Virus record (IMG/VR): IMGVR_UViG_3300025108_000028
Location: 14,865 to 78,864 of that record
Direction: 5' to 3' (one strand)
Source: a virus
Length of the DNA: 64,000 bases
Part shown: positions 13,069 to 63,948 of the stretch, one piece after another
How the letters are laid out: each line of letters opens with the position of its first letter
How positions within the stretch are numbered: the stretch's first letter is position 1
The notes under the pieces: generated by a model
The model's database searches: none
What the model was told of the DNA's origin: nothing
The model's input: the letters and a program-made list of their open reading frames with translations, nothing else
Position numbers and translations under genes: made by a program

Positions 13069-13269
13069 TTATATACGATGATAGTAATCATCTGCTACGA
13101 TGACTGCTGGTATCCAACCAATGAGTAACATAGTAAATATGGTTGCTCCATGGCTAAATGATTGTTTAAATGTAATAATATCTGTTAGATACCATACGAT
13201 AGTATTGACGATTAATAAAGTGATTACGAATGTGGTTATGCATACAAGCATAGTTTTAGTCTTTAACAT
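13069..13269 (-). CDS. Two-TM membrane protein
   Basis: Two hydrophobic stretches in 66 aa. Confidence 0.65.
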   Translation of the reverse strand: MLKTKTMLVCITTFVITLLIVNTIVWYLTDIITFKQSFSHGATIFTMLLIGWIPAVIVADDYYHRI

Positions 13270-13631
13270 AATGATTTAGTATTAGTGATTAGTAAATAAC
13301 TTAGAGTGCTTATCCATCTTATGTTGACTAGCTATACATGTATCTCATGCTTTAGTTGTCCAATGGCTGACACTATCTCAGAATAGTCAGTGGTATTGCT
13401 TGACTCATATCTCTAAGCTTTTGATTACAATATTCCGGGTACTATGTCTATTATCCTATAGAGGAAGAGACAAACATTACCCATGTAGTATTGTTGAGTG
13501 TAATTGTTACTCTTGTAGTAGTGTTAGCTATATTAATATATTAATGTGCTATGGAAGTTATGATAGTGGTAAAAGGTGGTATATTGTGGGTATGTGATGT
13601 CATACTGTTTGTATAACACACATTAATGCAC

Positions 13632-13671
13632 AAAAAATAAAAAGATTAACCAGCTTTTACACTGATTAATC
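13632..13671 (-). terminator. Intrinsic terminator
   Basis: GATTAACCAG/CTGATTAATC stem with A-tract, downstream of 13694 gene. Confidence 0.65.
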
Positions 13672-13693
13672 AATTTATCTACGGTTTACTAAA

Positions 13694-14029
13694 CTAAACT
13701 GCCTCTACCCATCTCAAATCTGTTTCTTCTCCAGTTGATAGGTTCATTACTGGATTATCAGACAATCTAAAGCCAGGCATCTTATCACCTCTGTTTAGTT
13801 TGCTCTGTAATTGTTTTATTGTAGGATGATCTGCCTTCATTACTTGACCTGTCTCTGGGTCCATTAGGCTTAACACACCAAAGCTAATGTTGGTCTGCTT
13901 TCTACTTGCCACTTTTAAACCGGCTATAGTAGTTTCAGATTGTACCATTGGCACATCTGATACAATAAGTGTTGCACTGTTAGTATTCTGATTGATACTA
14001 AATTTTCTAAAATAAACTGCTGTTTGCAT
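13694..14029 (-). CDS. Hypothetical early protein, paralog A
   Basis: About 65% identical by hand alignment to 14487-14816 product. Confidence 0.85.
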   Translation of the reverse strand: MQTAVYFRKFSINQNTNSATLIVSDVPMVQSETTIAGLKVASRKQTNISFGVLSLMDPETGQVMKADHPTIKQLQSKLNRGDKMPGFRLSDNPVMNLSTGEETDLRWVEAV

Positions 14030-14080
14030 AATAAATGTATTTAATGAATAATTATTTTGTGTATAAATGTATACGTATTA

Positions 14081-14113
14081 TAGGTGGGGAGAAGTGAAGA
14101 GGAAGGAAGCAGT
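14081..14113 (-). promoter_or_regulatory. G-rich repeated motif, copy 3 (long form)
   Basis: TAGGTGGGGAGAAGTGAAGAGGAAGGAAGCAGT, 51 nt upstream of ATG 14029. Confidence 0.55.
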
Positions 14114-14180
14114 GAATATATACAATAGGATTGTATGGTCTATAGCAATAGGATTTGAAATGTATACCCTAAAGCAGTAG

Positions 14181-14210
14181 AAAAAAAAAGGTGTGATTTT
14201 ACACACCCTT
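14181..14210 (-). terminator. Intrinsic terminator
   Basis: GGTGTG/CACACC stem with A9 tract. Confidence 0.7.
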
Positions 14211-14214
14211 AATC

Positions 14215-14412
14215 TTATTGACCCATATCCATATCATTAATCATATCTTCTTGGAAGTTACGACTGATACCTGTTTTCTTAGGATACATATCTTGTTTGA
14301 GAGATTCATACACTTGCATAAACTCTTCTACGTTCATATCTCCTGCTTCTTGACAGATAGCATCAAGTTTTAGTTTTATCTTGTGATGGATTTTAAATAA
14401 GTTGTTTTCCAT
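14215..14412 (-). CDS. Hypothetical protein
   Basis: 65-aa ORF between two terminators. Confidence 0.6.
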   Translation of the reverse strand: MENNLFKIHHKIKLKLDAICQEAGDMNVEEFMQVYESLKQDMYPKKTGISRNFQEDMINDMDMGQ

Positions 14413-39972: not shown

Positions 39973-42900
39973 ATGGCAACAATAACTGGCTCACAAAGAT
40001 TATTATCTTTAGAAGGTAACACTGTAGATACTACTGTTTCTTTAGGGGCAGGTGGTAGACTATTGGATAGTAATGGATCTGCTGGTACTAATGGTCAGAT
40101 TCTTAGTACTACAGGATCAGGTGTACAATGGGTTAATGACAAGACAGGTTCAAATAACTATGTATCAGGTATTAGCTTTAATACAACAAATGGAGTTCTA
40201 ACATTAACACGTTCAGGTCTAGGAGATCTTACAGTAGATTTAGATGGTAGATATTTAACCTCTGCATCAAACTTTTATCTTGATGGTATAACTAAATCAG
40301 GTAACACACTTACGTTTAGCGTTAGTGGTACTACAAATCAAACATATACATTTGGTAAAAATGCATTTAGTAGCTCTACTATTTATGCTGAGCCAGGTAT
40401 ATTTAGTGGTGGTGGTACACCAACTTTAGCTTCCGGTGTAACTGGAGCAGAAGTAAGGACATTAATTGGAGCTGGAACTGGTTCAGGATCTATGAGCTCT
40501 TGGACAATAAAAGAAGGTAATGGTACTGAATCAACTTCTGTTACTAATGGAGAGACTTTTACTATTGCTCAAGGTACCGGTATTACATCTGAGATGACAT
40601 CAACAAGTAGTGGTGGAACTATAACTATTACTAATACATTACCAGATACCGGTAGACCTGCAATATTATCTAATGGTTCAACCCCTTCTTTAAATTCAGG
40701 GATAAGTGCCGCAGAGGTAAGATCTCTTATAGGGGCAGGAACTGGAAGTGGTAGTTCTAACTTGGTTATTGGTACAACATCAACAACTGCAATGGCAGGT
40801 AATACAACAACTATTACTTCTGCACAAGCAACTGCTATTGTAAATAACAGTAAGAAAGTATCAGATACTGGAGTACCGGCAGTTTTGTCTAATGGAACTA
40901 CTCCATCATTAAACTCAGGTATATCTGCTGCTGAAATGAGAAGTCTTATTGGAGCAGGTACAGGTAATGGATCATCCAATTTAGTAATTGGAACTACTTC
41001 TACAACAGCTAAAGCAGGTAATATAACTACTATAACAGGTGCTCAAGCATCTGCTATAACTGCAAATACTGCTAAAGTTACAGATTCAGGAACACCAGCA
41101 ATACTTTCAAATGGAAGCGCACCAAGTCTTAATTCAGGAATCAGTGCTGCAGAAGTTAGAACATTGATTGGTGCAGGGACTTCAAGTAGTGCGGGAGTTA
41201 CAAGCGTTAGTGGTACTGCAAATAGAATTTCTGTTACAGCAGGTGCCACACCTACGGTAAATGCAATTACAGGTACAGTAACTTCTTCTTCTGCTAAATT
41301 AGCAACAGGAGCACAAATACAAACAGCTATTAATTCAGCTGTAACAGGAGTATTAAAATATAAAGGAACTTGGAATGCAGCCACCAATTCCCCACAACTT
41401 CAAAGTCAAAAAGGTACTGTAGGTGAATACTATATTGTATCTACAGCAGGTAATACAAATTTAGATGGTATTACAGACTGGGCAGTAGGTGACTGGGCAG
41501 TATTCTCTGATCAAGCTACAGATGCTTGGCAAAAAATAGATAACACACAAGTTGGTAATGTAACAGGTTCTGGGGTAAGTAAAAGACTTGCATTTTGGGA
41601 TAGTGCATCAAACATTTCAAGTAATAGTGGTTTTACAGTTAATACAGCATCTAAATCTTTAAATGTTAGTGGTCCAATAGTTTGGGATGGAGGTGGATCA
41701 ACAGAATCTAATAGTGCTTATGATAATATGATTACTGGCTTTAGTGATTCAGGATCAGGTACTATAACATTAACACTTACACAACAAGATGGTGGTACTT
41801 TAACTACATCATTTAGTAATCCACAAGGTACTATGTCTTCTTGGACTATTAAAGAAGGTAATGGAACAGAAAGCACGGCTGTTACAAATGGTGAAACATT
41901 AACAATAGCACAAGGTAGTGGTATACAATCAGAAATGACTTCTACATCTAGTGGAGGTACTATTACTATTACCAATACAGATAGAGGTTCTTCTCAATCT
42001 ATATTTAAAAACGTAAGTAATAAATCAGGAACTATTGTTGCTAAAAGCAACAATGATACCTTAAATATTTTAGGTTGTAAAGGAACAAACGTAGAGATTA
42101 ATGAAGAAGAACGTACTGTTATTATTTGTGCAGATCAACAAACTCTTTCTGTATCAGGTCAAACACTTACAATTTCTGATGGTAACTCTGTAACAATGCC
42201 AACTAACACAGGACCTCAAGGTCCCAAAGGAGACACCGGGTCTCAGGGGCCACAGGGTGGTAAAGGTGATAAAGGAGATACAGGATCACAGGGTATACAA
42301 GGAATACGTGGATTAACTGGAGCAGCAGGTGCAAAAGGTGACACAGGTGATGCAGGAGCTACCGGAGCAAGAGGACCGGCAGGAACAAACGGTACAAATG
42401 GAGCAAAAGGAGATACTGGAGATAGAGGTCCTCAAGGTACACAAGGTATACAAGGTAATCCTGGAACTGCAGGAGCCAAGGGAGATACGGGAGCAAGAGG
42501 TCCCGCAGGTGCAGCTGGTGCAGCCGGGGCAAAGGGAGATACTGGTGCTCAAGGACCAAAAGGTGATACTGGTTCACAAGGTCCAGCAGGACCTAATGGT
42601 GGAACATATCACTATACTAATTCAGGTGATAACCCAAGTAAATATAGATTCTGGGGTACTTCATCTACTTATGGTATAGGAATGCAATCTGGTCAAAGTT
42701 ATGGTTATTTAAATGACTATGCTACAGTATTCCAGATGAACAATGATGCAGACCGTGGTTGGGTTTGGAAATATGAAGGACAGTCAAATAGTGACGGTGC
42801 AATGTCATTAACAACTTCTGGTAATTTAAGACTTAAAGGAGTTTCTGATGTAGGATATGTTAGAATTAATGGTGCAGATGTAATTAATGAAAAAGGAGAT

Positions 42901-43476
42901 TGGGTAGGTAATCCAACAGGTTTGACAGGACCAAAGGGAGATACAGGATCTACCGGTCCAAGAGGAATACAAGGTGTTACTGGATCTCAGGGACCTGCCG
43001 GAGCTAAAGGAGATACAGGTTCAAGAGGGCCTGCTGGAACTAATGGAACTAATGGAACCGATGGTGCTAAGGGAGACACCGGATCAACAGGACCTAGAGG
43101 TGCAACCGGACCAGCTGGATCTACAGGTAGTCAAGGCCCGCAAGGTCCACAAGGTGATAAAGGACCAACTGGTAGTCAAGGACCAACTGGCGCTAGAGGA
43201 CCTACCGGTAATACTGGAGCAACAGGAAGTCAAGGACCACAGGGAATACAAGGCCCTGCTGGATCAAAAGGAGCAACTGGATCAACAGGTCCACAGGGAC
43301 CAGAGGGACCAGCCGGAAAAGATGGTGCAAGTTTTCCAGTCAATCTTGATGGTAAAACAAGTGCAATTAACAGAATGGACTTTTTTGTTGAAGGCCAAAA
43401 ATTCCCTGTTATGATAATAACATTAGAAGATGGAACACAACTTTGTTTTAATGCAGGTGATTGTCCTAGATTTTAA
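39973..43476 (+). CDS. Fibre protein 3 with collagen-like Gly-X-Y segments
   Basis: Internal repeats plus two long GXY runs (about 42211-42597 and about 42919-43329). Confidence 0.85.
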
Positions 43477-50818: not shown

Positions 50819-53800
50819 ATGGCAAAGAAGAAGTCTACATCAAAAGCTAAAGCAACACAAGCATCATCTAAAAGTAGTTCTAGTGTAAATACTAACATGT
50901 TTACCAAAGGAATGAATAAAGATGTAACACCGTCTTTTGAAAAAAATGATACTTGGTACCATGCTGTTAACGCAGCAAATAATAGTTCAGATGGTGACCT
51001 GGGTATTATTGGTAATGAGCCAGCTAATTTACAATGTGGTGTTATACCTTACACTATTATAGGAGCTATACATAGATATGGTGATGAGTGGATTGTATAT
51101 TCTACTGATAATATTAGTTCAGAGATAGGAAGATTTGATGATAGTGAATGTAAGTATGAGACAATAGTTAATGATCCATGTTTAAATTTTAATAAAAAGT
51201 TTTTAATTAGCGGTGCAGCAAAAGAAAATTTTGACTGTTCTTGGCAAGTGTATTGGGATGATGGTAACAATCCATCACGCTCAATGAACATAGATGATGT
51301 ACCATACATACAAGATATAGTATCAGCTCCAGGTGATCCATGTATTATTTATGAGGATACTTCTTTTTTAGATTGTGAAAAAATAAGATTACATCCTCTA
51401 GTAGATACACCTTGTCTTAAACTTACTAAGGCAACAGATGGAGGTACTATTATAAATGGAGCTTATCAAGCTTATATAGCTTATACTGAGAATGATCAGG
51501 TTATATCAGACTACATAGGAATATCAAACATCCAAACCATATGGTCACATAGAGGTACGAATGGATCACTTGATATAGAAATTGATGGTTTAGATAAAGA
51601 TTACTTTTATTTTGATTTAGTATTACTAATAAGACAGCAAGGACAAATATTTACAAAACTTATAGGTAACTATAGTACTGAATCAAAACATATAAATATA
51701 GACTATATAGATGATTCACTTATATCTATACCAATACAAGAAATATTTAGACAGTCACCCGCATATGAAAAATCAGAGGCAATGTACGTTGTCAATGATT
51801 ATCTTATAAGACAAGGACCAACTGAACAATTTGATTTTAATTATCAACCTCTTGCAAATAATATAAAAACTAATTGGGTTATCAATGAGGTAAGTAATGA
51901 TTATTATATAAACTCAGGTAATAAATTAGGATACATGCGAGATGAGCAGTATGCATTTTTTATTAGATGGATATATAACACAGGTGAAAGGTCTTCTTCA
52001 TATCACATACCAGGTAGAGCATCTAAGGATTATACTTTACCTAATGGGGTAGTTGAAAATGAAAGAACTATAATATCTGGTCCCAATACATTAGATCCTG
52101 CAGGTGATCCTTTATTTAAAGTTTATAATACAAGTTCTGTAGGTGCTTTAGTTAATGAGGCACAAGATGATGGATCAAGAATAATAGCTAGAGGTGATAT
52201 GGCTTATTGGGAATCTACAGAAAAGTATCCTGATAAACAACCTGAAATATGGAACTCAAGCTCACATACTTGGTCAAATGAATTTGATCCGGGTGCAGAC
52301 TTATGTGGTGAATTTATCAGACATCATAAAATGCCTAATGAAATGGTTAATCCTGTATTAGGTTTAACAGATGGTACGGATACAGGTATATACATATTAG
52401 GCGTAGAATTTTCAAATATAAAAAGACCTGTATATAATGATGGTAGTCCTATTACAAATATAGTAGGTTATGAATTACTTAGAGGGTCTAGATTAGGTAA
52501 TAGAACTATACTTGCTAAAGGTATGTTTAAAAACATGCGTGAGTATGATTTACCAGATAGTGAAAATTTAATTGGTGATGCTCAAGGTCTATATCCTAAT
52601 TATCCTTTTAATGATTTAAGGCCTGATGTGTTTCACACAACAGTTAGAAAAACAACAGGTTGTGACAATGGAGGTCCATTTTCTGGTTCTGCAATTAGTG
52701 ATTTTCCACCTCTATCTGGTTTTAGAGAAGATGTTTTTACATTTCATTCACCAGATTTAATGTTTACTAAACCATATTTAAATGCATATGAAACAGTATT
52801 CTATGGTAAGATAACTGGAGAATCATCGGGTTACTTTAAACCATCAGAGAAGCATCCTCAGTTTAAATTACTAAGAAACATTAGTGCTATAATTAGTGCA
52901 TTAATAGGTGTAGGTTATGCTTTAAGAAATATCAATGGTACACCAGATACTAAAGCATTGCCAGTTCAAGGTATTAACACTGCTTATCCTGAATGGAGAA
53001 TTGACGAAAGAGGTGGAGGTGGTGGAAATTGGAATGACTTTGCTTCATCCGTAACTCCAGGAGGTGTTGCAACTGCTAGTACATCAGGTAATATTAGTAG
53101 TCACACTGGTGGTGATGGTAATAATAATTATAAAGGAGCTGGTGCACAGACTGATGCAAACGATGCTATTAATACATATGTATCTAGTCAAGGTGGTGGA
53201 GGTATTGGAGGCTGGTTAGGTGGCCTTTTAGATTTGTTTACTGGTGGCATTCAAGATGTTCAAGATTTAACAGGATTTGGAGATAGTACAAAAGAAAGAC
53301 TAAATCAGTTGGCTATAGATAACATGTCAGATACAGGTTCTACTGCTAATGGTGGTCTTATGGGTGGTGGCTCTCAAGAAGGAGTGACATTAGATACCTC
53401 AGAATCAAACTTAGGTAAATTATTTAAAAGAGCTTTTGGTTTTGCATTACTCCAAAAAAATATTGCAGTTGGCGGTCAAGAAATAATAGATTTATTATAT
53501 AACCTAAATTCTTTTCAGGAACATGTTTTAAAATATAATGCATATGGGTTCTATAATGATTTTGATGCCCATCCTTTAAACATAACATTTAGAACATTAA
53601 ATGAAGCAGCTAATTATATAGGTTCTTCATTCCAAACATTTGATCAAAATAAATATAAAATAAATAATTTATTTAGACCTACTACTGTAGCAATTTCAAC
53701 TAAAGATAATATATCTTCAAACTATGGTGTAGAAGATAAATCTAGATTTGCTTTAGGTGGATTCTTTAATAGTAATGGTACTGCGTCAACACCAAATTGG

Positions 53801-56800
53801 CAAAGTAATTTAAAAAATCCAGAAGGTCCATATAAAAAACCTATATCTGCATTGTATGGTGCATTAAAGTTTAACATGGATAATCAGTATGGTCAACTTG
53901 ATGGTATAAAACAAATACAGCAAAGAGGTTGTGTAGAAAAAGTAGATCAATCAGATCCAGCTAATTTAAAATATACAAGTAAAGCTTTATTTAGTGGTGA
54001 TGTATTTATTTCTCACTACACTGAAAAATCTATTATGCCAATTTTTACTGACTTTTTAATTGGTCAGTATGATGGATATCCATATGATTATTACTTAAGA
54101 TACAATGTACCTTTTCCAAGATTTTGGCTTAACAGTAGAAAGTTTGATATGGCCGGTATGGCCACTACAATAAGTTCTTTTGGATTCAATGAACTGTTTG
54201 GTGGTAATGATATTGATGAGACTTTACCAAATGAATTATATTACTTAGATAGAGGTGATACTTGTGGATGGAACTTACTATCACTTTTTACTTCTGATGG
54301 TTTGAATAGTGCGTTTGCTATGAACCGTGCATACATGTATAGTCACATAAATGGGGTAAATGATTTTTATGTTGAAACAGAAATTAACTTACCGTATAGA
54401 GATTGGGAAGAACCAAAAGAAAGAAGATTTTATGACAAGTATGATTACAATGATTTAGATGATTTGTTTCATGCTGAAATAGAAAAATTTGATAACTTTT
54501 ATAAGTATGACGAGTCTCTAAGTCCATCTAAATTTATCAGTCAAAACAGTACGTTTGCAGAGCTACAAACAAAAGACTATGACCCATACGTTGCAGAAAA
54601 TTGTTATGTCAATTATCCTAAGAGATTAATATATTCCTTACGTGCTGAAGAAGAAGATAGAAGAGATTACTGGAGGCAGTATCTATTTGCTAATTACAAG
54701 GACTTTAAAAATAAAGTATCTGTCATAAAACCTTTTAGTAAGACGGGAGCATTAATGTTTTTCCCTTATCAATCACCACAATTATTTCAGGGTGTTGATA
54801 CTTTAAAAACAGATGCTGGTACTAAAATAACAATAGGTGATGGTGGATTGTTTAGTCAGCCTTTACAGAATATAGTAAATAGTGATTTATCAAATGAGTA
54901 TGGATCACTAGAAAATCAACGTGGTGTTATAAACACAGCAGCAGGTTTATTTTTTATATCCCAAGCTCAAGGTAAAATATTCCAATATACTCCAGGCAAA
55001 GGCTTAATTGCTATATCAAACCAGGGAATGAAATGGTGGTTTAATAAATATTTACCTTCTAAATTTTTAAAACAATTCCCAGAAGCAGAGGAAACAAAAT
55101 GGATAGACAATCCAGTAGTTGGAGTTGGTTGTCAAGTCATGTATGATCCAAATGATGATATAGTCTACTTTATGAAAAAAGACTATTCAATGAAATCTCA
55201 GTATGCAATAAGAGCAACTCTTACAGATAGATTGACTGCACCAATTGATATTACTCTTGGTGGTAATGTAGTTGCTGTTGAGATAGGAGATCCTATATAT
55301 TTTGATGATTGTTCTTGGACCATAAGCTATGATCCAAAAGCAAAAGCATGGATTTCATTTCATGATTGGCATCCTGAATTTGCATTGCCAAGTATAAATC
55401 ATTTCTTTACAACAAAGACTATTGAGACAGATATACCACAATGCCCTCCAGGTTATACTTTTAATTCAACAACTGGGTTATGTGAAGATATTATAAATAT
55501 AACTGAGCCACGTGAAGTAACAGTAGATGATATACCTGCAACTGTTACAGGTGGTCCACAAAATTGTTTATTAGATATTGTAATTGCTATAGATGCATCT
55601 GGTAGTACAGGTAATCCAGGCCCTGGTCAAAATACTTTAGCAGATGCAGAATTAACATGGTTGGTAGCTTTTATAAATGATCCTGCTATACAAGCAGCAT
55701 TAACTGCAAATACTATGCAGATAGGATTTTTAGCTTGGGCAACTAATTCAGCTCAAGGAAATCCAACTGGGACAGGACAGTCTATGTTAGGAGCTGTTAC
55801 TGGAGCTCAAGCAAGAACTTGGTTTCAAAATAACTGGTCAGGTCAAAATGGTATAGGTGGTCAAACTAATGCACAACTTGCAAGAACTAATGGGTTAGCA
55901 CAGCTTAATAATAAAGCAGGATCAGCTTACTCCGCTGCCTATCCAGCAAGAAGTGCTGATCCTTTCTTTAGACAAATTTTAATTGTAGTAACAGATGGTA
56001 ATGCAATTACTTCAGGTAACAATACATTAACTCCACAAAGTTTTAATTCTTTACAAAGTCCAAATGTTATACCTGGAGCAGGTGGTCCAGTTAATCAAGA
56101 ATTAATGTCTGTATTTGTAGGTCCAAATGCAAATGGTCCAAATAATTCAACCATTATTGATCAAATAACAGTTGGTGCTGGTGCGGGTCCAGCTAATGCA
56201 TATTATAATGCAGGTCCTCCAATAACACCTGGGCCAAATCAATTTATAATGAATGCAAGTGTTCCAGCATCATTGCAGGCTACAGCACAACAAATAGCAG
56301 CTCAAGTTTGTACTATTCCATTTACTTGTGATTGTCCAGCAGGGTATACTTTAGTATATCCAAATGCTACTAACGGATTTTATACAGATCCTACAGGAAC
56401 ATGTGATGATGTAAATCCACCTATTTGTAGACAGGTTGAATGTCCTGACTGTCCACCAGGTCCAACAAATACAACAACAACTACATTAGGAAGTTGCCCA
56501 GATACATTCCCTGAATTAGGTCTTATAGGAGACCCTAACTGGGTAGACCCTACACCTCCATTGTGTAATTATTATTATGCAGACTTTGTGCAAGCTAATT
56601 ACCAAGTTGGTTCATTCTGGAGACATAATGTAAGGTGTGATTTATTTGCCAATTACTATGGTGAAAGTTTCCCGTGGGAAATAGAATTAATATCAAATAC
56701 AGGTCAGACAGTAAATACTATTAGAAGTATAGAATATCAACTAGAAACATTTGTTTATAAAGGAGAACCAGAATACAATATGTGTGGGGGAGATAAATGG

Positions 56801-57226
56801 GAAGATCTTTTATTTAATTTTGATAAAGCAATTATTTATAATACAGAACAGGTATCAGGATTACTGAATATAGAAATGCAACCATTTAATAATCCATGGG
56901 CAGAGAATGCATACCCTATAGTTAGCCCTAATGACATAACTGTTCTTTCTAGTAAAGTAGAACATAAGTTTAGAATAAATCAGTTTTATGATATTACAAA
57001 TGATAGAGGTGAATTTTCTAACGCAGAACAATCTGTATTTGATACACAATGTAATGGATACATTAGGCCTTTAAATCAAACTAATCTAAATTACTTTAAG
57101 AGTCCTACTCAGCATAAAAAGTTTAGACATTATTCTAATCATGTTTTATTAAGAAGACAAGAATCTGGAAATAGAAAAATGCTATTAAGATTAGACAATA
57201 CTAAATTATTACTATCAAAAAGATAA
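50819..57226 (+). CDS. Tail stabilisation/muzzle protein with inserted vWA domain
   Basis: F.KGMNKD, YWDDGNNPSR, GYMRDE.YAF, WTISY...AWISFHDW; insertion with IDASGS. Confidence 0.8.
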   Translation: MAKKKSTSKAKATQASSKSSSSVNTNMFTKGMNKDVTPSFEKNDTWYHAVNAANNSSDGDLGIIGNEPANLQCGVIPYTIIGAIHRYGDEWIVYSTDNISSEIGRFDDSECKYETIVNDPCLNFNKKFLISGAAKENFDCSWQVYWDDGNNPSRSMNIDDVPYIQDIVSAPGDPCIIYEDTSFLDCEKIRLHPLVDTPCLKLTKATDGGTIINGAYQAYIAYTENDQVISDYIGISNIQTIWSHRGTNGSLDIEIDGLDKDYFYFDLVLLIRQQGQIFTKLIGNYSTESKHINIDYIDDSLISIPIQEIFRQSPAYEKSEAMYVVNDYLIRQGPTEQFDFNYQPLANNIKTNWVINEVSNDYYINSGNKLGYMRDEQYAFFIRWIYNTGERSSSYHIPGRASKDYTLPNGVVENERTIISGPNTLDPAGDPLFKVYNTSSVGALVNEAQDDGSRIIARGDMAYWESTEKYPDKQPEIWNSSSHTWSNEFDPGADLCGEFIRHHKMPNEMVNPVLGLTDGTDTGIYILGVEFSNIKRPVYNDGSPITNIVGYELLRGSRLGNRTILAKGMFKNMREYDLPDSENLIGDAQGLYPNYPFNDLRPDVFHTTVRKTTGCDNGGPFSGSAISDFPPLSGFREDVFTFHSPDLMFTKPYLNAYETVFYGKITGESSGYFKPSEKHPQFKLLRNISAIISALIGVGYALRNINGTPDTKALPVQGINTAYPEWRIDERGGGGGNWNDFASSVTPGGVATASTSGNISSHTGGDGNNNYKGAGAQTDANDAINTYVSSQGGGGIGGWLGGLLDLFTGGIQDVQDLTGFGDSTKERLNQLAIDNMSDTGSTANGGLMGGGSQEGVTLDTSESNLGKLFKRAFGFALLQKNIAVGGQEIIDLLYNLNSFQEHVLKYNAYGFYNDFDAHPLNITFRTLNEAANYIGSSFQTFDQNKYKINNLFRPTTVAISTKDNISSNYGVEDKSRFALGGFFNSNGTASTPNWQSNLKNPEGPYKKPISALYGALKFNMDNQYGQLDGIKQIQQRGCVEKVDQSDPANLKYTSKALFSGDVFISHYTEKSIMPIFTDFLIGQYDGYPYDYYLRYNVPFPRFWLNSRKFDMAGMATTISSFGFNELFGGNDIDETLPNELYYLDRGDTCGWNLLSLFTSDGLNSAFAMNRAYMYSHINGVNDFYVETEINLPYRDWEEPKERRFYDKYDYNDLDDLFHAEIEKFDNFYKYDESLSPSKFISQNSTFAELQTKDYDPYVAENCYVNYPKRLIYSLRAEEEDRRDYWRQYLFANYKDFKNKVSVIKPFSKTGALMFFPYQSPQLFQGVDTLKTDAGTKITIGDGGLFSQPLQNIVNSDLSNEYGSLENQRGVINTAAGLFFISQAQGKIFQYTPGKGLIAISNQGMKWWFNKYLPSKFLKQFPEAEETKWIDNPVVGVGCQVMYDPNDDIVYFMKKDYSMKSQYAIRATLTDRLTAPIDITLGGNVVAVEIGDPIYFDDCSWTISYDPKAKAWISFHDWHPEFALPSINHFFTTKTIETDIPQCPPGYTFNSTTGLCEDIINITEPREVTVDDIPATVTGGPQNCLLDIVIAIDASGSTGNPGPGQNTLADAELTWLVAFINDPAIQAALTANTMQIGFLAWATNSAQGNPTGTGQSMLGAVTGAQARTWFQNNWSGQNGIGGQTNAQLARTNGLAQLNNKAGSAYSAAYPARSADPFFRQILIVVTDGNAITSGNNTLTPQSFNSLQSPNVIPGAGGPVNQELMSVFVGPNANGPNNSTIIDQITVGAGAGPANAYYNAGPPITPGPNQFIMNASVPASLQATAQQIAAQVCTIPFTCDCPAGYTLVYPNATNGFYTDPTGTCDDVNPPICRQVECPDCPPGPTNTTTTTLGSCPDTFPELGLIGDPNWVDPTPPLCNYYYADFVQANYQVGSFWRHNVRCDLFANYYGESFPWEIELISNTGQTVNTIRSIEYQLETFVYKGEPEYNMCGGDKWEDLLFNFDKAIIYNTEQVSGLLNIEMQPFNNPWAENAYPIVSPNDITVLSSKVEHKFRINQFYDITNDRGEFSNAEQSVFDTQCNGYIRPLNQTNLNYFKSPTQHKKFRHYSNHVLLRRQESGNRKMLLRLDNTKLLLSKR

Positions 57227-60200
57227 TGGGAAGAAATAAAAGCATAGGATTAAAAGGAGGACCAAATGAAATAATTATTGATCCAAAAGGACAATGGAAT
57301 CATCCAGGAAAAAACACACGTATTGAAGGTAATCACATTACTATGCAAGATGTGCAATATCCAGTGTGGGCTCAACCTAACATTGGTCCTGGAACAATGA
57401 TGATGCCTGGTAGTGAACACTATTTTAAAAATGCAGATTATGTAGATGAATATCCCATGGCTCAAAATGGCATAGAAATTCCAAAAAGAAAGGGTGTAAG
57501 AATAAATGAGGATGGAAGTGTGTCTACACATCTAATGAAAGCTGAGACAGTTGATGGTAAATGGTATGGGTTTCCATCATTATTCCAAAACTCTAATGGA
57601 GAATGGATAGATATGTCAGGTGAGAAAGATTGGATGAATATATATAATGAAGCAAAAAAAAGAGGTGAGCTTATAGAATTTGGAGATGATGCAGAAAGTG
57701 CAATAAAGTTTGCAGAAGGTTCTTGGAAACCTAAGGCTCAACGTGGTGGTAGTGCATTACCTAAAGCTCAAGATGCTGGTAGCACTTCTACGCCAACAAA
57801 GCAAATTGAGTTTATGACTAATTGGGCAAATTCACCAATGCATAATCAAATGTTAAATGCTAGTTCTACCTCAGATAAATTTAAAGATAAAGTTAAGATT
57901 GCAAGAAATAACTTTAAGAATGTAAATATATCTGATGATGAAGTTGATGGTTTTCTAGGACAGTATATTAATGGTCAAATAACAATGAACCCTTCACTAT
58001 TGGAAGAGGCTAGAATAGGCAATGGTTATGATAGCGTTCTTGTTCATGAATTGTCACATTTTACTGATGATGGTGACCCTGATAATAAGGGTTATTTTAA
58101 AGTAAGTAATATACCTTTATCTGACCGTAAACTAATTAAAAAATATGGTAAAGAAGGAATAAAACGTGCAAAGAAAGAAGAAAAAGAACTTAATGAACTA
58201 TTATTGTCTGAAGGGTTAACGCCTAATGATAAAGAATTTCTTGAAGAAAGAATTGACCGTCTTAGATATTTAAATAGAGATACAGAAACAAGATCAAGAA
58301 TAAATGCTACAAGATATTTTTATGAAGAGGATGAAAACTTTGGTAGAAGTAGTGAAAGAAACATAGACAAAAACTTACCAAGTATATTTGATTCTAAGGT
58401 AACTCCTGAGATGATCAAGGTTATGCAACAGAGTGGGCAGTATAAACAGTTACAAGAAATTTATACGGATGATCAGATACTAGAATTATTTAATACTATA
58501 TCAGATAGCAAAACCCCAGAAAGAAGCTTTAATGTATTAAACGCAAGATATGGAAAAGAATTACCAACTGCTCAAAAGGGGAAAAGTATAATAACAGCAT
58601 TATTAAAACAAGCTAAAAAATGGGCTCCAAGTGTTTTTGGAAAAGCAGACGATGTAGCTAAAAGATCAGATAATGTAGTTAAAGCTGTTAGCAATACTTC
58701 TAAAAAAGGTTTATATGAAATGTTTCCTATTAGACAACTAGATGCACCTACAAATTATGGTACTGTAAAGGTAGATGATGGTACTATACAAACTGCTTTA
58801 GATGCAATGAAAGCCCAAGGAAAGTATGCTGATGATGTAGGATATAGCATAGATGATTTAGTAGGTAGTGATATTCAGTACTTAGGTGATGTGAGTGGCA
58901 GAACTATTGTTAATGTGCCATTACCAGATGGCAAGAGTCAATTGTTTTATAAATCTTCAGGATTGGCTGGTAAAAGAGGAAGTGGTGTAGGAGGCACATC
59001 AGAAGGATTATGGCAACCCTATGGGGGTCATGCATCTGTTAGTGATTTTCCAGGCCGTGGTTATGTAGAGAATTGGTTTATAAAAGATTCAGGTTATGCA
59101 GACTATTATGGTAGTGAATCATTTAAAAACATAGCTAATAAATTAGGTGAAATAGGAAAAGAACAAGGATGGGATATGTCTAATCAAATACTAAAAAGTA
59201 AATTGAAGTATGGTGGAGAAGATCTACCAAAAGCTCAACGTGGGTTAATTAAACAGCTCATAAAAAGTGGAGCTAAATATGCAGATGAGATTATACCAAC
59301 AATAAAAAATTATTTTAAAGGCGTTGATGATGCAGGTGAATTTGTATCTGAAATTAATTGGGGTAAATGGAATAAAACAATACCAGATAATAAACCCCTC
59401 ATGGAAGAGTATGCAACAATTGAAAAGGTTGGTAAAGCAAAAGGTACTTGGATGAAGAATCCTGATGGCTCTAAGTTTACAGGTACACCTGAGCAATGGG
59501 TACAACAACAAAGTAGTAATTATAAAGCAGCTTTTGGTGAAAGTAAATTATTAAATCCTGATGGCTCACCTATGAAACTTTATCATGGATCACCTAAAAA
59601 GTTTGATGCTTTTGATGAGTCAATGTATCAATTAGGTGACTCAGGTTATTCTGGAGCAGGGATATATACAACACCTAGTAAAACAACCGCAAATAGTTAT
59701 ACAATATCTGGCAAAAGATTTCATGATGGAGAAATTGAGCCTACTCTTTATGAATTATATGGAAGGGGAAATAATCCTATAACGTCAAAGCAATTAATAG
59801 ATAACTCTGGGGGAGATATAGGATTTGGTAAAGTTGGAGAATTAATTGATAAAAATTTACCTACAAGTCTTTTTAATTTTCATAGAAAAGGAGCTCCAAG
59901 AGTAGATCAGCTTTTACAATATGATGTTGCAATAAAAAATCAAAATAGAGGTATAAGTAATATTAGGCCAATTGAAAATGCTTGGGAAATTGTTTTTCCA
60001 TCTAATAAACAATTAAAATCAGCAGTAGGTAACAATGGTATGTTTGATATGACTGACCCCAATATATATAAACAAAATGGTGGAGAGTATGATCCATATT
60101 TTGATATTGATGATAAGTCTAAACAAAGAAGAGAAAGATTAAATGCTGCATTAAAGAGAGTAGTTGCTAATTCAGATAATGATTCAGATTTAGAAGCATT

Positions 60201-60789
60201 GTTGTTAATGACTGCTGCTATGGAAAATTCATTTGGTGGAAATTCTGATGCATATGGTAGAAATTATACAAGAGGACCAATGTCTATAGATGATGCAGCC
60301 TACAATGATTTGTTTGATCCTAGAGGTGAAAATAACAGATACACAGCTCAACAAAAAAAGATGTTTGATTGGTTAAGTTCAATGGGTTTAGATCCTACAA
60401 ATATGAACAATGCATTAAAAGCAGGAGATGAATTAGCAGGAATGGCTGCTGCTAGAATGCAATACGCTAGATCTCCTGAGAGTTTACCTAGCTCACAAGA
60501 CCCAAATGCAATGTATGACTATTATATGAAATTTTATAACAAAACAGATGCTGATCATAAAGAAAGATTTATGGGGAACTATAATGCATTTATTAAACCA
60601 AAGCTAAAAACTGGTGGTGAAGATGATCCATATAGAAGATATAAGAAATATGTAAATGGTGGGTTTGTTGGATCAGATGAAGATAAAAAAAATTATGATA
60701 AAATAAATAGAATCAATTATGCAGATGCTAAAGCAGTAGGTATGACTCCTGCAAATTACATAATGACTGAGTTATCTAAGCGTTCTTAA
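57226..60789 (+). CDS. Polyvalent ejection/cargo protein (zincin, ART-PolyVal-like and lysozyme-like modules)
   Basis: HELSH at 58045; YHGS..GIYTT..A.SY..WEIVF..KSA.GNNG.FD; modules separated by GG/LPKAQ linkers. Confidence 0.7.
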   Translation: MGRNKSIGLKGGPNEIIIDPKGQWNHPGKNTRIEGNHITMQDVQYPVWAQPNIGPGTMMMPGSEHYFKNADYVDEYPMAQNGIEIPKRKGVRINEDGSVSTHLMKAETVDGKWYGFPSLFQNSNGEWIDMSGEKDWMNIYNEAKKRGELIEFGDDAESAIKFAEGSWKPKAQRGGSALPKAQDAGSTSTPTKQIEFMTNWANSPMHNQMLNASSTSDKFKDKVKIARNNFKNVNISDDEVDGFLGQYINGQITMNPSLLEEARIGNGYDSVLVHELSHFTDDGDPDNKGYFKVSNIPLSDRKLIKKYGKEGIKRAKKEEKELNELLLSEGLTPNDKEFLEERIDRLRYLNRDTETRSRINATRYFYEEDENFGRSSERNIDKNLPSIFDSKVTPEMIKVMQQSGQYKQLQEIYTDDQILELFNTISDSKTPERSFNVLNARYGKELPTAQKGKSIITALLKQAKKWAPSVFGKADDVAKRSDNVVKAVSNTSKKGLYEMFPIRQLDAPTNYGTVKVDDGTIQTALDAMKAQGKYADDVGYSIDDLVGSDIQYLGDVSGRTIVNVPLPDGKSQLFYKSSGLAGKRGSGVGGTSEGLWQPYGGHASVSDFPGRGYVENWFIKDSGYADYYGSESFKNIANKLGEIGKEQGWDMSNQILKSKLKYGGEDLPKAQRGLIKQLIKSGAKYADEIIPTIKNYFKGVDDAGEFVSEINWGKWNKTIPDNKPLMEEYATIEKVGKAKGTWMKNPDGSKFTGTPEQWVQQQSSNYKAAFGESKLLNPDGSPMKLYHGSPKKFDAFDESMYQLGDSGYSGAGIYTTPSKTTANSYTISGKRFHDGEIEPTLYELYGRGNNPITSKQLIDNSGGDIGFGKVGELIDKNLPTSLFNFHRKGAPRVDQLLQYDVAIKNQNRGISNIRPIENAWEIVFPSNKQLKSAVGNNGMFDMTDPNIYKQNGGEYDPYFDIDDKSKQRRERLNAALKRVVANSDNDSDLEALLLMTAAMENSFGGNSDAYGRNYTRGPMSIDDAAYNDLFDPRGENNRYTAQQKKMFDWLSSMGLDPTNMNNALKAGDELAGMAAARMQYARSPESLPSSQDPNAMYDYYMKFYNKTDADHKERFMGNYNAFIKPKLKTGGEDDPYRRYKKYVNGGFVGSDEDKKNYDKINRINYADAKAVGMTPANYIMTELSKRS

Positions 60790-60843
60790 ACCTTTAAAAT
60801 TAGTGATTCTAAGTAATTATTTGTATATTAATAATATAATATT

Positions 60844-63800
60844 ATGAGTTTGAAAGTAAACAAAAAAAGTTTAAAACAACAAGGTGGACAGATGATACCT
60901 GAGCAACCTGGGATGCAGCAGCAAACGCAGCAACCACAGGTTGATCCAAAGGTTATGGAAATAACTCAAGTTATAAGTCAATCAGTTCAAGAAGGTCAAG
61001 ATCCTAAAGATGTTATTTCAAGTCTACTAGAAAATCAAGTTGATTCTCAGATGATTGCGCAAGCATTAATGGTTGCAGGAATGAAAGAAGAACAAATAAT
61101 AGCTTTATTTGATTCTATTGAAGAATCTAATCAACCTTCTCAGCCTGATCAAGTATCTAACAATCCTCAACTACTTGCAAGAAATGAAAGTTTACAAACT
61201 CAAGATCAACAAGGATCTCCTGAAGAGCAGATGATGATGCCAATGGCACAAGCCGGGACAGAAACAATTAATGATTACTGGCAAAATGCTAATGGTGACG
61301 TTGAAAGGCAAGATTTGGATGAAGTTACTATTACAGCAGATAATAGATCATGGTTAAAAAAATTAACGGATAATGCTTTGTATAATATTAATCCTTTATA
61401 CTTGGCTGATGACGCTTTACAGGTACTAGGTATACCTGCTAACTTTATAAGAGAAGGTGTACAAGGTGTTTTTGACAAAGGAGATGGTTCATTTGATTGG
61501 GGTAATATTATACCAGATATACGTAACACTACTATATTAGATGATGATCCGTCTCAAGAGGGTGTATCTAAATCATTAGGTGTAGATAATTTTTGGGGAG
61601 CTCTTGCAACAGATATGGTATTAGATCCTACTACATATATTGGTGCAGGTGTTGTAAAGAATTTGCTAAAGAAAGGATTAAAAACAGGTAGTAAAAAACT
61701 TGCACCTAAACTTCTTAATAAGGTTGATGATGGATTAAAAAGAGCACCCGGTGAATTACCTGAGGGTGTTAGCATTATTGATATATTTAAACAAAATTTA
61801 GATGATGCAGATAACGGGCTTAGTCAAATTGATGATCTTGAGAGAAAAGAGATAGAAGATTTTCTAAATGTATTTAAAGAAGACAAAGCAGCTAGATCAG
61901 CTGAATCAGCAGCAGAAAAAGAAGCACGGGATTTACTTGATAATCAAATGATAAGAGACAAGTACTTTGATGATGTTGCTGGTTTGGAAGATGAGGATAT
62001 AAGATTTATGATTGACAGAGGTGATGTCCCATCAGATGTTATTGAAAGATTAATAGAAAGCAGAAGAGGAAATTTGACAGAAGATCTTATTGGAAATCAG
62101 CAAGGTAGAAGCAGTCTTCTTGATGAATTCTTAAAAAGAAAAGACATACCTTCAGATGTAAAGTCTGATATGATAGATATAGATTATCTGAACATAGGAA
62201 ATAGACGAGAAGACGTTAAAGATTTTTTAAAGAAAACAGGTATTGATAGTGATAATTTTCCAACAGGTGGAGAGCCTAGAAGCTATGCAGTTGGAGGAGA
62301 AAAACAATATATAAATGGTGTTTACTTGCCTGACGAAAAAGATATTGATGATAAATATTTAGACAAGAATATTAATAGAGCTGTTGAGTTCTATAGTGGT
62401 GTTGATCCTACATTAGGTTTAGCTCCTTTAATGCCACCGCCAAAAACAAATATATTTTTAGATACGCTACAAACTGGTGTAAGTATGTTTGCAGATGCAA
62501 AAAGTGCATTTGGAGGATATAGTGAAAGACAAGAAGAATGGGCTAATAAGCTACCGTCTTTTTATAAATATGATGTAAATACAGAAGGTGTATTTGAACC
62601 TGAGAATCAAATGAAAATTAAAGATTGGGCACAAACTCAATTTGATGAATGGCAGGCAGAAACAGACAAAAATGTTGCAAGTTCTAATAAAGAAAAAGCA
62701 AGTATTTTAGGTACTACTGTAGACAAAATGATTAATGGTCAAACATTTGAAGAATATAATAGAGAGCAAGGTCAAACAGTTGTTGGTAAAACAGCTGAAG
62801 AAATAGCCACTATGCAAGACTTATATAGGGCCGCTGCTAAAAAAGCTAGAGGTGGAGAACAATCTTTACCAAAAGCACAGTATAATCTTCCTGACTGGAT
62901 GTATGGTAAAGATGGGGCTGAGTATGATATGGGTGGATCAGATTTCAATCCTTATACAGATAGTCTACAGGATATGATGAAAAATTCTGGTCAAACAAAC
63001 TACATGGAGGATTTAATGAATACTACACCTCCAAGAAAATCAAGCAATCAACCAACACAACCCGTATCTAATAAACCGCCTGTTAGAACTGCAGATGATA
63101 AATTTGGTGACATTACTTTACCGGAAGCCAGAGTGTCTAATCCTTTAAGCGGTACATTAGATGCTATTGCAGATAGTCCTTTATACAATGCTTATACAGC
63201 AATGTCAAACTTTGCTGTCAAAGGAGCAGGTTTTTATAATAGAAGGATGGCAGAGCGTGATTTTAAAAGACAATATGATAAGCTTGAGTTGATGGGTGGT
63301 GCTGATTTTGCTTATGATACTAAGATGTCTGATCCTATGAGTGAAGGTTATTATGGTTTAAATGATGGACGTTTACAAGGTGAAGCGGAAAGAACAACTG
63401 GTTACTATATGAACTTCCAAGGATCTCCTACTCAGTTTGGTGGGGCAACAGGAACTGCAAAAAAAGGTGGTGAGTTTGAAGCACATATGATGTTTGATCC
63501 TAAAACAGGTAAAGGATATAAAGCCAATCAACCTGCTGATCATGAAAGAATGAAGAAACTAGGTTATCTTCATAAAGATGAAATGCAAGATGGAGGACCT
63601 ATTACACCAGAAATGAAAGCTTATCTTGATGCCCTTGCATTCAATAAAGAAGCAAGGCAAGCTATTGGTACTAATGATAGAGAAAAACTAAAAAAATTAA
63701 GATTAGATAAACCATATAATACTAACGACCTAGCAAGAGATTTTCATGAATTACAACAACTAAGAAAAGCAGCAGGCTTGGGTGCAATGGAAGAAGCCTC

Positions 63801-63948
63801 TATTATTTTTCCCCATGTAGGTCAACAAATAAGAGGTGGTATTAATTCAATCCTAGGAACTAATTTTGAACAGGGTGGAGAAATAGAAGTTGATAATGAT
63901 ACATTAGCTGCATTAATAGCAGCAGGTGCTGACATAGAAATATTATAA
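60844..63948 (+). CDS. Ejection/cargo protein with repeated xxxGG motifs
   Basis: Q/M-rich low complexity, DMVLDPTTYIGAG hydrophobic motif, about 10 GG linkers. Confidence 0.65.
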   Translation: MSLKVNKKSLKQQGGQMIPEQPGMQQQTQQPQVDPKVMEITQVISQSVQEGQDPKDVISSLLENQVDSQMIAQALMVAGMKEEQIIALFDSIEESNQPSQPDQVSNNPQLLARNESLQTQDQQGSPEEQMMMPMAQAGTETINDYWQNANGDVERQDLDEVTITADNRSWLKKLTDNALYNINPLYLADDALQVLGIPANFIREGVQGVFDKGDGSFDWGNIIPDIRNTTILDDDPSQEGVSKSLGVDNFWGALATDMVLDPTTYIGAGVVKNLLKKGLKTGSKKLAPKLLNKVDDGLKRAPGELPEGVSIIDIFKQNLDDADNGLSQIDDLERKEIEDFLNVFKEDKAARSAESAAEKEARDLLDNQMIRDKYFDDVAGLEDEDIRFMIDRGDVPSDVIERLIESRRGNLTEDLIGNQQGRSSLLDEFLKRKDIPSDVKSDMIDIDYLNIGNRREDVKDFLKKTGIDSDNFPTGGEPRSYAVGGEKQYINGVYLPDEKDIDDKYLDKNINRAVEFYSGVDPTLGLAPLMPPPKTNIFLDTLQTGVSMFADAKSAFGGYSERQEEWANKLPSFYKYDVNTEGVFEPENQMKIKDWAQTQFDEWQAETDKNVASSNKEKASILGTTVDKMINGQTFEEYNREQGQTVVGKTAEEIATMQDLYRAAAKKARGGEQSLPKAQYNLPDWMYGKDGAEYDMGGSDFNPYTDSLQDMMKNSGQTNYMEDLMNTTPPRKSSNQPTQPVSNKPPVRTADDKFGDITLPEARVSNPLSGTLDAIADSPLYNAYTAMSNFAVKGAGFYNRRMAERDFKRQYDKLELMGGADFAYDTKMSDPMSEGYYGLNDGRLQGEAERTTGYYMNFQGSPTQFGGATGTAKKGGEFEAHMMFDPKTGKGYKANQPADHERMKKLGYLHKDEMQDGGPITPEMKAYLDALAFNKEARQAIGTNDREKLKKLRLDKPYNTNDLARDFHELQQLRKAAGLGAMEEASIIFPHVGQQIRGGINSILGTNFEQGGEIEVDNDTLAALIAAGADIEIL

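Follow-up and report, generated by a model that had tools for sequence, protein, structure and literature searches.

Introduction

Alt of phage T4 is an injected ADP-ribosyltransferase that is carried in the head, and a short conserved end peptide directs its loading; the tag of the T4 internal proteins is found only at the N-terminus, where the prohead protease gp21 removes it by cutting after Glu, and it joins no modules. T7 gp16 and the ejection proteins of P22 are large internal proteins of fixed architecture that are ejected before the DNA, and the chain of gp16, which is multi-domain and uncut, includes a lytic transglycosylase module. Among the viruses of guts and oceans, crAss-like phages rank with the most abundant. 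In Bacteroides phage crAss001, the two genes after the muzzle gene encode the cargo proteins C1 (gp45) and C2 (gp46), both found in virions by mass spectrometry (Bayfield et al. 2023, PMC10172136), and the virion model of gp45 has residues 214-245 docked on the ring proteins R1/R2 and residues 425-552 on the portal (PMC10172136; PDB 7QOG, 7QOI, 7QOJ, 7QOL, 8CKB). Polyvalent proteins, described in phages and conjugative elements by Iyer, Burroughs, Anand, de Souza and Aravind in 2017, combine many unrelated effector or wall-degrading domains per chain, are delivered with the DNA and undergo extensive domain shuffling (PMC5512222). Here we report that two large genes of an uncultured virus, which its genes place among the crAss-like phages, encode modular proteins whose modules meet at a recurring short peptide. 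These genes lie at the end of a 64,000-nucleotide stretch (the window) comprising bases 14865-78864 of the 78,864-bp linear virus contig IMGVR_UViG_3300025108_000028 from IMG/VR, which has no terminal repeat and is 68% complete by CheckV.

Coordinates are those of the window unless a locus is named, and the muzzle and cargo features all lie on the plus strand. Related loci carry L numbers (L184 is crAss001 and L186 is Leptolyngbya phage Lbo-JY46), proteins carry P numbers and genomes carry G numbers.

Two cargo proteins built from exchangeable modules

The muzzle protein (2135 aa; 50819..57226) was recognised by PF25731 crAss_MUZ (E 8e-29) and by phrog_37948, a virion structural protein, and it marks the locus as the crAss-type tail-tip/cargo region. 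Pfam and PHROG scans also found the crAss major capsid protein, tail ring proteins 1 and 2, the portal and the large terminase on the contig. Directly 3′ of the muzzle gene, in the position held by cargo genes, come cargo protein 1 (P0001, 1187 aa; 57226..60789), which homology boundaries, Pfam and AlphaFold2 (AF2) describe as a polyvalent modular protein, and cargo protein 2 (P0002, 1034 aa; 60844..63948), which by its homologs and AF2 model is mostly helical or floppy. The contig stops 52 bases beyond P0002.

The locus resembles that of crAss001 in that the two genes following the muzzle gene encode its cargo proteins, which are largely floppy, and gp45 of crAss001 has an aromatic-GG punctuation of its own. 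In contrast, crAss001 C1 and C2 have no LPKAQxG and no enzyme cassettes. No sequence similarity of P0001 or P0002 to crAss001 cargo was detected, and crAss_CARG1 (PF25725) gave no match to them at E ≤ 0.1; crAss_CARG1 is present in P0240, a protein that shares a module with P0002. A head-carried ADP-ribosyltransferase (ART) and a short end peptide would be points of likeness to the T4 internal proteins and Alt, which differ in that no prohead protease was found here; T7 gp16 and the P22 ejection proteins differ in having no cassette exchange and no repeated junction peptide. Polyvalent proteins are close in architecture: P0001 has the hallmark ART-PolyVal domain above cut-off, plus a lysozyme-like domain and a putative zincin-like one. 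From the synteny with crAss001 and the ART-PolyVal domain we infer by analogy that the cargo proteins are packaged and ejected, and in this sense they would also share delivery with the DNA. A conserved junction peptide is, by contrast, not described in PMC5512222, where the word “linker” has 0 occurrences.

To locate module boundaries, we performed a HMMER search of 1.84 billion representatives, which yielded 3,658 relatives of P0001. Boundaries were then read from phmmer local alignments, counting only ends internal to the target protein, using for P0001 the best 150 of the 3,658 relatives, mutually ≤50% identical, and for P0002 a set of 48 relatives. For P0001, 65% of 435 alignment ends fell within 20 residues of the six linker sites (21% expected); for P0002, 65% of 165 ends fell within 20 residues of the sites listed in the initial annotation of this DNA (28% expected). 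Since alignment ends are not fully independent, p values for these comparisons are only indicative. The ends in P0001 clustered at residues 81-90 after PMAQNG, 171-195 at KAQRGGSALPKAQDAG, 441-455 at LPTAQKG, 651-710 at YGGEDLPKAQRG and the helical spacer that follows it, 941-970 at KQNGGE and 1121-1145 at LKTGGE. All six P0001 linkers and most P0002 linkers are thus points where similarity to approximately 200 diverse relatives starts or stops. A pairwise-BLAST breakpoint test performed earlier on IMG/VR loci had given a 1.9-fold enrichment (p 0.0015), low because the ends of high-scoring segment pairs are noisy, and it is superseded by the phmmer test on representatives.

The AF2 model of P0001 (mean predicted local distance difference test score, pLDDT, of 60) has confident blocks at residues 31-78, 190-425, parts of 520-580 and 700-780, and 958-1187. 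Six of six linkers fall in stretches with pLDDT < 50, including a sharp dip at 1129-1132, though linker 5 is less informative because the ART region is poorly modelled. For P0002 the model consists mostly of helices predicted at low confidence (mean pLDDT 42), and the two blocks that scored best, 878-914 and 920-980, have their borders exactly at GGE 875-877 and DGGP 916-919. The initial annotation had placed the linkers between domains rather than inside them, and both lines of evidence agree with this.

Its picture of swappable cassettes, which it proposed to check by asking whether domain swaps between relatives break at the linkers, also holds, as these sites are where modules are exchanged, reordered, gained or lost among relatives. 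L001 has residues 89-174 of P0001 replaced, L002 has the ART module (703-948) replaced, and L003 has a 346-aa insertion exactly at KQNGG (linker 5). In L027, L028 and L030, modules 16-87 and 77-186 are either in reversed order or C-terminal, and the first cargo protein of relatives contains LysM, YkuD, Amidase_2, SLT, SET, PG_binding or ART cassettes. Cassettes move together with their flanking linkers, as the linker at 657-697 of P0001 matches a second linker in L043 and L047.

Anatomy of the cargo proteins

At least five separable modules can be distinguished in P0001 from homology boundaries and AF2. The protein opens with a basic peptide ending in GG, MGRNKSIGLKGG (57226..57261), of which relatives keep M..K..GLPGG. 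Module A (residues 31-78; 57316..57459) is predicted to be a small six-strand beta module (pLDDT ~80), and its place in relatives varies between the N-terminus, the middle and the C-terminus. It is followed by linker 1, EYPMAQNG (57448..57471), a lone PMAQxG half-motif with 49 alignment ends at 81-90 and a pLDDT that falls from residue 79, and, further on, by linker 2, SWKPKAQRGGSALPKAQDAG (57721..57780), which has 38 alignment ends within 20 residues and pLDDT < 50 at 146-188; the similarity of L001 and L002 resumes at residue 175. The helical cassette at residues 190-445 (57793..58560; pLDDT 60-92), which is optional among relatives, contains HELSH. Its Pfam matches to M91/M48 are weak and below cut-off and its Foldseek matches to minigluzincins are weak (E > 0.4), and we therefore call it zincin-like with reserve.

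Linker 3, ARYGKELPTAQKG (58543..58581; 9 alignment ends, pLDDT < 50 at 426-460), leads to the “FYKSSG” cassette at residues ~476-660 (58651..59205), a separate module in relatives, where it extends from 476/479/522 to 666/675/683; it matched no family in Pfam, PHROG or structure searches. Linker 4, KLKYGGEDLPKAQRG (59200..59244), precedes a helical spacer of ~30 residues and has 36 alignment ends, with pLDDT < 50 at 636-704. The ART cassette (module 701-950; 59326..60075) matches PF18760 ART-PolyVal at 779-940 with 50.9 bits against a cut-off of 31.2; its edges are marked by 44 alignment starts at 701-710 and 62 ends at 941-950, and in L002 other sequence stands in its place. After linker 5, YKQNGGEYD (60067..60093; 107 alignment ends within 20 residues), residues 958-1125 (60097..60600; pLDDT > 90) form a lysozyme-like or lytic-transglycosylase-like cassette, so named because it matches phrog_3108 and has weak Foldseek matches to GH19 chitinase and MltE. 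Linker 6, KLKTGGED (60601..60624), coincides with the pLDDT dip noted above and with 18 alignment ends, and separates this cassette from a constant C-terminal tail module (residues 1134-1187; 60625..60786). The tail is retained even in minimal relatives; P0100, P0118 and P0121 are reduced to module A, one cassette and the C-terminal tail.

P0002 had no family match anywhere along its length in Pfam, PHROG or structure searches. A PDB sequence search, a whole-model Foldseek search and the ESM Atlas gave no usable fold assignment. The N-terminal peptide of P0002, MSLKVNKKSLKQQGG (60844..60888) has N6, S9, Q12, G14 and G15 invariant in 38 homologs. The junctions downstream are MMPMAQAG (61234..61257), with 37 alignment ends within 20 residues; the double GGE junction FPTGGEPRSYAVGGE (62257..62301), with alignment starts at 481-490; KARGGEQSLPKAQYN (62842..62886), with invariant G670/G671 and a weak boundary signal; and AKKGGE (63457..63474), with 18 alignment ends. 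The last of these opens onto a 37-aa mini-module, HMMFDPKTGKGYKA…LGYLH (63475..63585; pLDDT 69-76), which shares 59% identity with part of a 462-aa protein from the Methylophilales myophage Melnitz, where the GG flanks are absent. At the MQDGGP junction (63583..63600) there are 16 alignment starts at 911-920, and pLDDT is < 50 exactly at 915-919. Module 919-1007 (63598..63864) has 75% identity to residues 220-322 of P0240, in which this type of module adjoins the crAss_CARG1 portal-binding domain (PF25725 at 342-455). The FEQGGE junction (63865..63882), with 21 alignment ends, invariant G1011/G1012 and a nearly invariant E1013, is followed by the conserved C-terminal peptide IEVDNDTLAALIAAGADIEIL (63883..63945), in which L1024 to I1031 are invariant in the 38 homologs. 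These last 21 residues (…LIAAGADIEIL) are the most conserved stretch of the protein and look like a docking or targeting peptide; the second cargo protein of the cultured Leptolyngbya phage Lbo-JY46 ends in a tail resembling that of P0002. Boundary support is poorest at the LPKAQ of 62866, with few ends, and at YDMGG and KQQGG, with little or none; KQQGG nonetheless carries the invariant G14/G15.

A two-part junction peptide

The strings and positions in the initial annotation were correct: the LPKAQ-type motifs of P0001 start at L178 (nucleotide 57757), L446 (58561) and L667 (59224), and that of P0002 at L675 (62866). The recurrence that it saw stands for one part of the pattern and not for the other. 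There are 7 instances of P[KMTQ]AQ among the 2,222 residues of cargo, and the remaining 20,702 residues encoded by the contig hold 3 (Fisher p 7e-6); for P[KMTQ]AQxG the counts are 5 in the cargo proteins and 0 in the rest. The number of GG pairs, taken by itself, is what chance predicts in the cargo proteins (22 observed, 17.5 expected), so that “xxxGG” by itself is a weak signal; GGE, however, is specific to cargo, accounting for 8/22 GG there and 2/115 GG elsewhere on the contig (p 5e-6).

From 42 non-redundant instances in related loci we derived the consensus [KY]-x-G-G-x-[LVI]-P-[KMQ]-A-Q-x-G, and the mean flanks of 2,889 GG dipeptides in relatives read [FYM]-[QK]-x-GG-[ESW]-[LVI]-P-.-A-Q-.-G. 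Each linker carries one or both of a module-closing [FYM]-[KQ]-x-G-G(-E) and a following [LVI]-P-[KMQ]-A-Q-x-G that opens the next module. These halves can be parted: 87/170 copies of PKAQxG have no GG in the 8 residues upstream, the majority of GG[ED] have no PKAQ after them, and where both are present the spacing from GG to PKAQxG is 0 to 6 residues.

The peptide also occurs at protein ends. LPKAQxG is found at residues 6-15 of separately encoded cargo proteins, in MAKDNLPKAQVG (L028, L030) and MKIRIIGLPKAQIG (Lbo-JY46). Many relatives end in …NYNTPQPGGWLDKY directly before the stop codon (the GGWLDKY type), and other relatives begin with MAKWLDKYEQGG; GG-W-L-D-K-Y and GG-x-L-P-K-A align as a single theme. 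A reading as a sortase-like signal of the LPxTG type was dropped, as both key positions differ (T to A and G to Q). A text search of the literature found no paper mentioning the junction peptide.

Conservation at the peptide level and spread across the clade

Among the 150 representatives, 77 carry a total of 120 copies of [LVIFYM]P[KMQT]AQxG. A DNA pattern for GG-x-L-P-K-A-Q-x-G matched at least 120 IMG/VR contigs, and reading frames were analysed in 80 of these at least 120 loci. Every one of the 82 motif matches in the 80 loci was in frame; 78 lay in open frames of at least 300 aa (median 1,001 aa), and 43 of the motif-bearing frames hold at least two copies. A muzzle homolog lay within the fetched stretch in 46/120 loci, among the matches listed. 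The same DNA pattern gave at least 120 matches in 596 Gb of cellular genomes compared with ~139 expected by chance, with a median GC of 0.59 and a median open frame of 154 aa. These cellular matches behave as chance and are uninformative, and the few low-GC contigs among them are probably mis-binned phages.

The codons of LPKAQxG vary synonymously (TTA/CTA, CCT/CCA, GCA/GCT, GGT/GGA), roughly as background, and G14/G15, G670/G671 and G1011/G1012 are invariant in the 38 P0002 homologs, which are 25-91% identical. Because synonymous sites vary while the GG pairs are invariant, selection acts on the peptide and not on the DNA. A DNA-level recombination signal was rejected for the same variation in the motif codons.

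These results bear on a rival possibility, namely that the peptide is a passive standard linker, a tolerated flexible connector that travels with cassettes or aids microhomology-mediated exchange and is read by nothing. Its sites are indeed flexible and located at recombination breakpoints, and cassettes are exchanged with their flanking linkers, as in the match of 657-697 to L043 and L047. Against a passive connector, five to eight positions are conserved across proteins otherwise < 30% identical, the GG pairs are invariant, and DNA identity is not kept. The peptide is moreover retained at the termini of stand-alone proteins, where a linker is needless, and the Melnitz mini-module, which is outside the crAss cargo context, is without GG flanks. 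We consider a passive linker improbable.

The tag-bearing phages appear to include a cyanobacterium isolate as well as phages presumed to infect Bacteroidota. Lbo-JY46 (PP438436.1; L186:17602-27543) was isolated on a cyanobacterium and has a crAss-type muzzle homolog with 27% identity. Its cargo proteins contain module A and FQxGG joints; the third starts with MKIRIIGLPKAQIG and the second ends in FQQGG…LIELGYDFEVV. Lbo-JY46 is a possible laboratory model for the tag, and its host assignment deserves a check; we found no paper on this phage in the literature. LPKAQ is absent from Cellulophaga phi4:1 and Flavobacterium FpV4, cultured relatives considered for their virion proteomics.

The host range also touches on the idea that the peptide is a signal read after injection in the host cell, for example by a refolding chaperone or by an envelope sorting or anchoring factor. 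Cargo must refold after its passage through the tail (PMC10172136), and tags flank every independently folding module. The combination of cyanobacterial and presumed Bacteroidota hosts is, however, more easily explained by a reader on the phage side, and we judge a post-injection signal highly improbable.

Search for a cutting enzyme

The initial annotation offered a maturation-protease site as one reading of the linker. Under this explanation the cargo proteins are polyproteins, and a phage or host protease, acting in the head or post-ejection, frees the effectors by cleaving at the junction peptide. Much of what is described above suits it: the peptide is at every module joint in flexible segments and is kept among phages with differing modules, module order is permuted, periplasm- and cytoplasm-acting modules occur on the same chains in relatives, and both cargo proteins start with conserved basic peptides whose terminal GG is invariant. 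Zincin-mediated processing of polyvalent proteins was proposed by Iyer et al. 2017, with P1 DdrB being processed (PMC5512222), and P0001 has the zincin-like HELSH.

Following the suggestion in the initial annotation that a protease be sought elsewhere in the genome, we performed hmmscan with all 63 open reading frames (ORFs) of at least 90 aa against Pfam, and with the late arm against PHROGs (for ORF set A3, 25 of 45 PHROG families listed). Neither the Pfam sweep of the 63 ORFs nor the PHROG sweep of the late arm returned a Cys or prohead protease family. The sole peptidase-like protein was a DUF2201_N metallopeptidase-vWA protein beside a MoxR-like ATPase in the early arm. This module lies just before the window start, on the minus strand (L061:9637-14559, G000:C1), and comprises the DUF2201_N and vWA protein (13103-14263), the MoxR-like AAA+ ATPase and three unnamed proteins.

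We next performed six-frame profile searches of the contig and of 13 tag-bearing genomes that are 97-100% complete. In this set there was no adenain C5 (PF00770) or Ulp C48 (PF02902), PF00770 having no positive control at E ≤ 0.01, no C39 (PF03412), for which controls were positive in 7 genomes, and no HK97-type S78 prohead protease (PF04586). Within this set, clan-CE, C39 and S78 proteases were accordingly rejected as cutters. DUF2201_N was found in 13/18 tag-bearing genomes at least 90% complete and in 0/3 tag-lacking genomes, an enrichment that speaks for cutting; being absent from five tag-bearing genomes that are 90-100% complete, the DUF2201_N-vWA/MoxR module was rejected as a dedicated protease; in all probability it marks the clade. 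Only 2/17 tag-bearing genomes at least 90% complete carry the P0001 zincin cassette, which was rejected on that count as a universal processing enzyme. This differs from the processing by metallopeptidases proposed in PMC5512222, as the zincin is here optional and lacking in most tag-bearing genomes. Genomes G003, G037 and G043 have neither DUF2201_N nor the zincin cassette. Within the reach of these profiles, no recognisable phage protease appears to go with the tag.

Viral polyproteins processed at di-glycine by clan-CE proteases (adenain, pS273R, Ulp) have the site (M/L/I)-x-G-G|x, with a hydrophobic P4. The GG sites of the window, K-Y-G-G, Q-N-G-G, K-T-G-G and Q-R-G-G, instead have K or Q at P4. 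The halves of the motif occur alone, with variable spacing, and at extreme termini, from which a cut would take no more than 5-7 residues, an anatomy that leans away from a single scissile site, and the virion model shows AFGGWL of crAss001 gp45 intact. With no adenain, Ulp, C39 or HK97-type protease, with K or Q at P4 and with metallopeptidases that are not universal, the reading as a maturation-protease site is left unsupported, and we regard it as rather unlikely. We also consider it quite unlikely that a maturation system still to be discovered, based on a host enzyme or on a new protease family, cuts at GG / LPKAQ and releases separate effectors.

A candidate handle for loading or ejection

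The evidence agrees better with a packaging or ejection tag, the other reading offered in the initial annotation, than with a protease site, though the tag is equally unproven. The explanation that we tentatively favour, at a little under even chances, is that the junction peptides are uncut handles at module ends, with a Gly-Gly hinge, which are read by the loading or ejection machinery of the particle. P0001 and P0002 would be polyvalent virion cargo with constant end pieces, namely the N-terminal basic peptide with the beta module A and the C-terminal tail, and with interchangeable cassettes between them joined by flexible linkers. A conserved component of the particle or of its loading or ejection apparatus would recognise the handles, by analogy with the short gp45 segments that dock at portal, tail barrel and muzzle in the crAss001 particle, and thanks to the hinge each module could be unfolded, passed through the tail and refolded independently of the others. 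As each cassette would carry its own handles, it could be moved, fused or split without losing compatibility.

The closest precedent is gp45 of crAss001 (L184:1988-4516), which has aromatic-GG at 208-210, 426-428 and 561-563, in SAYGG (206-210), NAFGGWLNTQGG (424-435) and FAYGGDTNPY (559-568). These peptides bracket the docked gp45 segments, and because the model spans 425-552, AFGGWL is ordered and continuous in the virion. We did not see this bracketing pointed out in the text of PMC10172136, and the published crAss001 papers give no gp45 termini. Since crAss001 is a distant phage without LPKAQ, its AFGGWL serves as a precedent and not as a test. Taken with the separable halves and the terminal copies, it leads us to infer that the peptide is recognised and not cut.

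Several observations weigh against uncut handles. The free permutation of module order fits independent modules, as they would be after cutting, better than an ordered threaded chain, and the presence of wall-degrading and cytoplasm-acting modules on one chain in relatives is an arrangement in which separation makes sense. The motif is long and rich in information, its A-Q/Q-x and G-G bonds resemble specific viral protease sites, and the N-terminal peptides, conserved and with GG at their end, resemble leaders that are cleaved off. The crAss001 precedent is a GGWL-type peptide from a distant phage that lacks LPKAQ. Finally, the protease searches reach Pfam and PHROG profiles only, and a host protease may be the cutter.

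Neighbouring genes

Close relatives L001 and L002 encode further proteins of 949 and 1136 aa after their P0002 equivalent, and the third cargo gene is missing from the present incomplete contig. The third cargo protein of L001 (17161-20007) and its equivalents in L003, L005, L047, L049 and L052 begin with MAKVRINKLPKGF…KRDGG, while the first cargo protein of L055 (6680-13537) has the C-terminus …VKINGLPKNWKSQ. INKLPK may be a further terminal peptide shared between these third cargo starts and the L055 first cargo end.

In the C-terminal half of the muzzle protein, residues ~1540-1900 contain Cys-rich EGF-like stretches with a weak cEGF match and a vWA-like DxSxS string (DIVIAIDASGSTG); set against the muzzle of crAss001, this region seems to have been inserted. 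A 1167-aa protein at 39973-43473 with 18% glycine and collagen triple-helix repeats (Pfam Collagen, E 1.5e-38, ORF set A3) is predicted to be a collagen-like tail fibre. One ORF of set A2 (5775-27352) encodes a GroES-like co-chaperonin (Pfam Cpn10, E 4.5e-17; phrog_3188).

Implications

Should an undiscovered maturation system prove to be at work, these would be the first effector polyproteins of bacteriophages to follow a cleavage grammar that is dedicated and clade-wide, and a cleavage code would add a polyprotein strategy to phage biology. If the peptide represents a docking code, the ordering of cargo in head and tail would have an explanation. With a conserved tag that is portable and sits at junctions or termini, injected proteins could be spotted in metagenomes by a sequence rule; such a tag would also explain the free exchange of effector cassettes and could serve as a handle for loading foreign proteins into particles.

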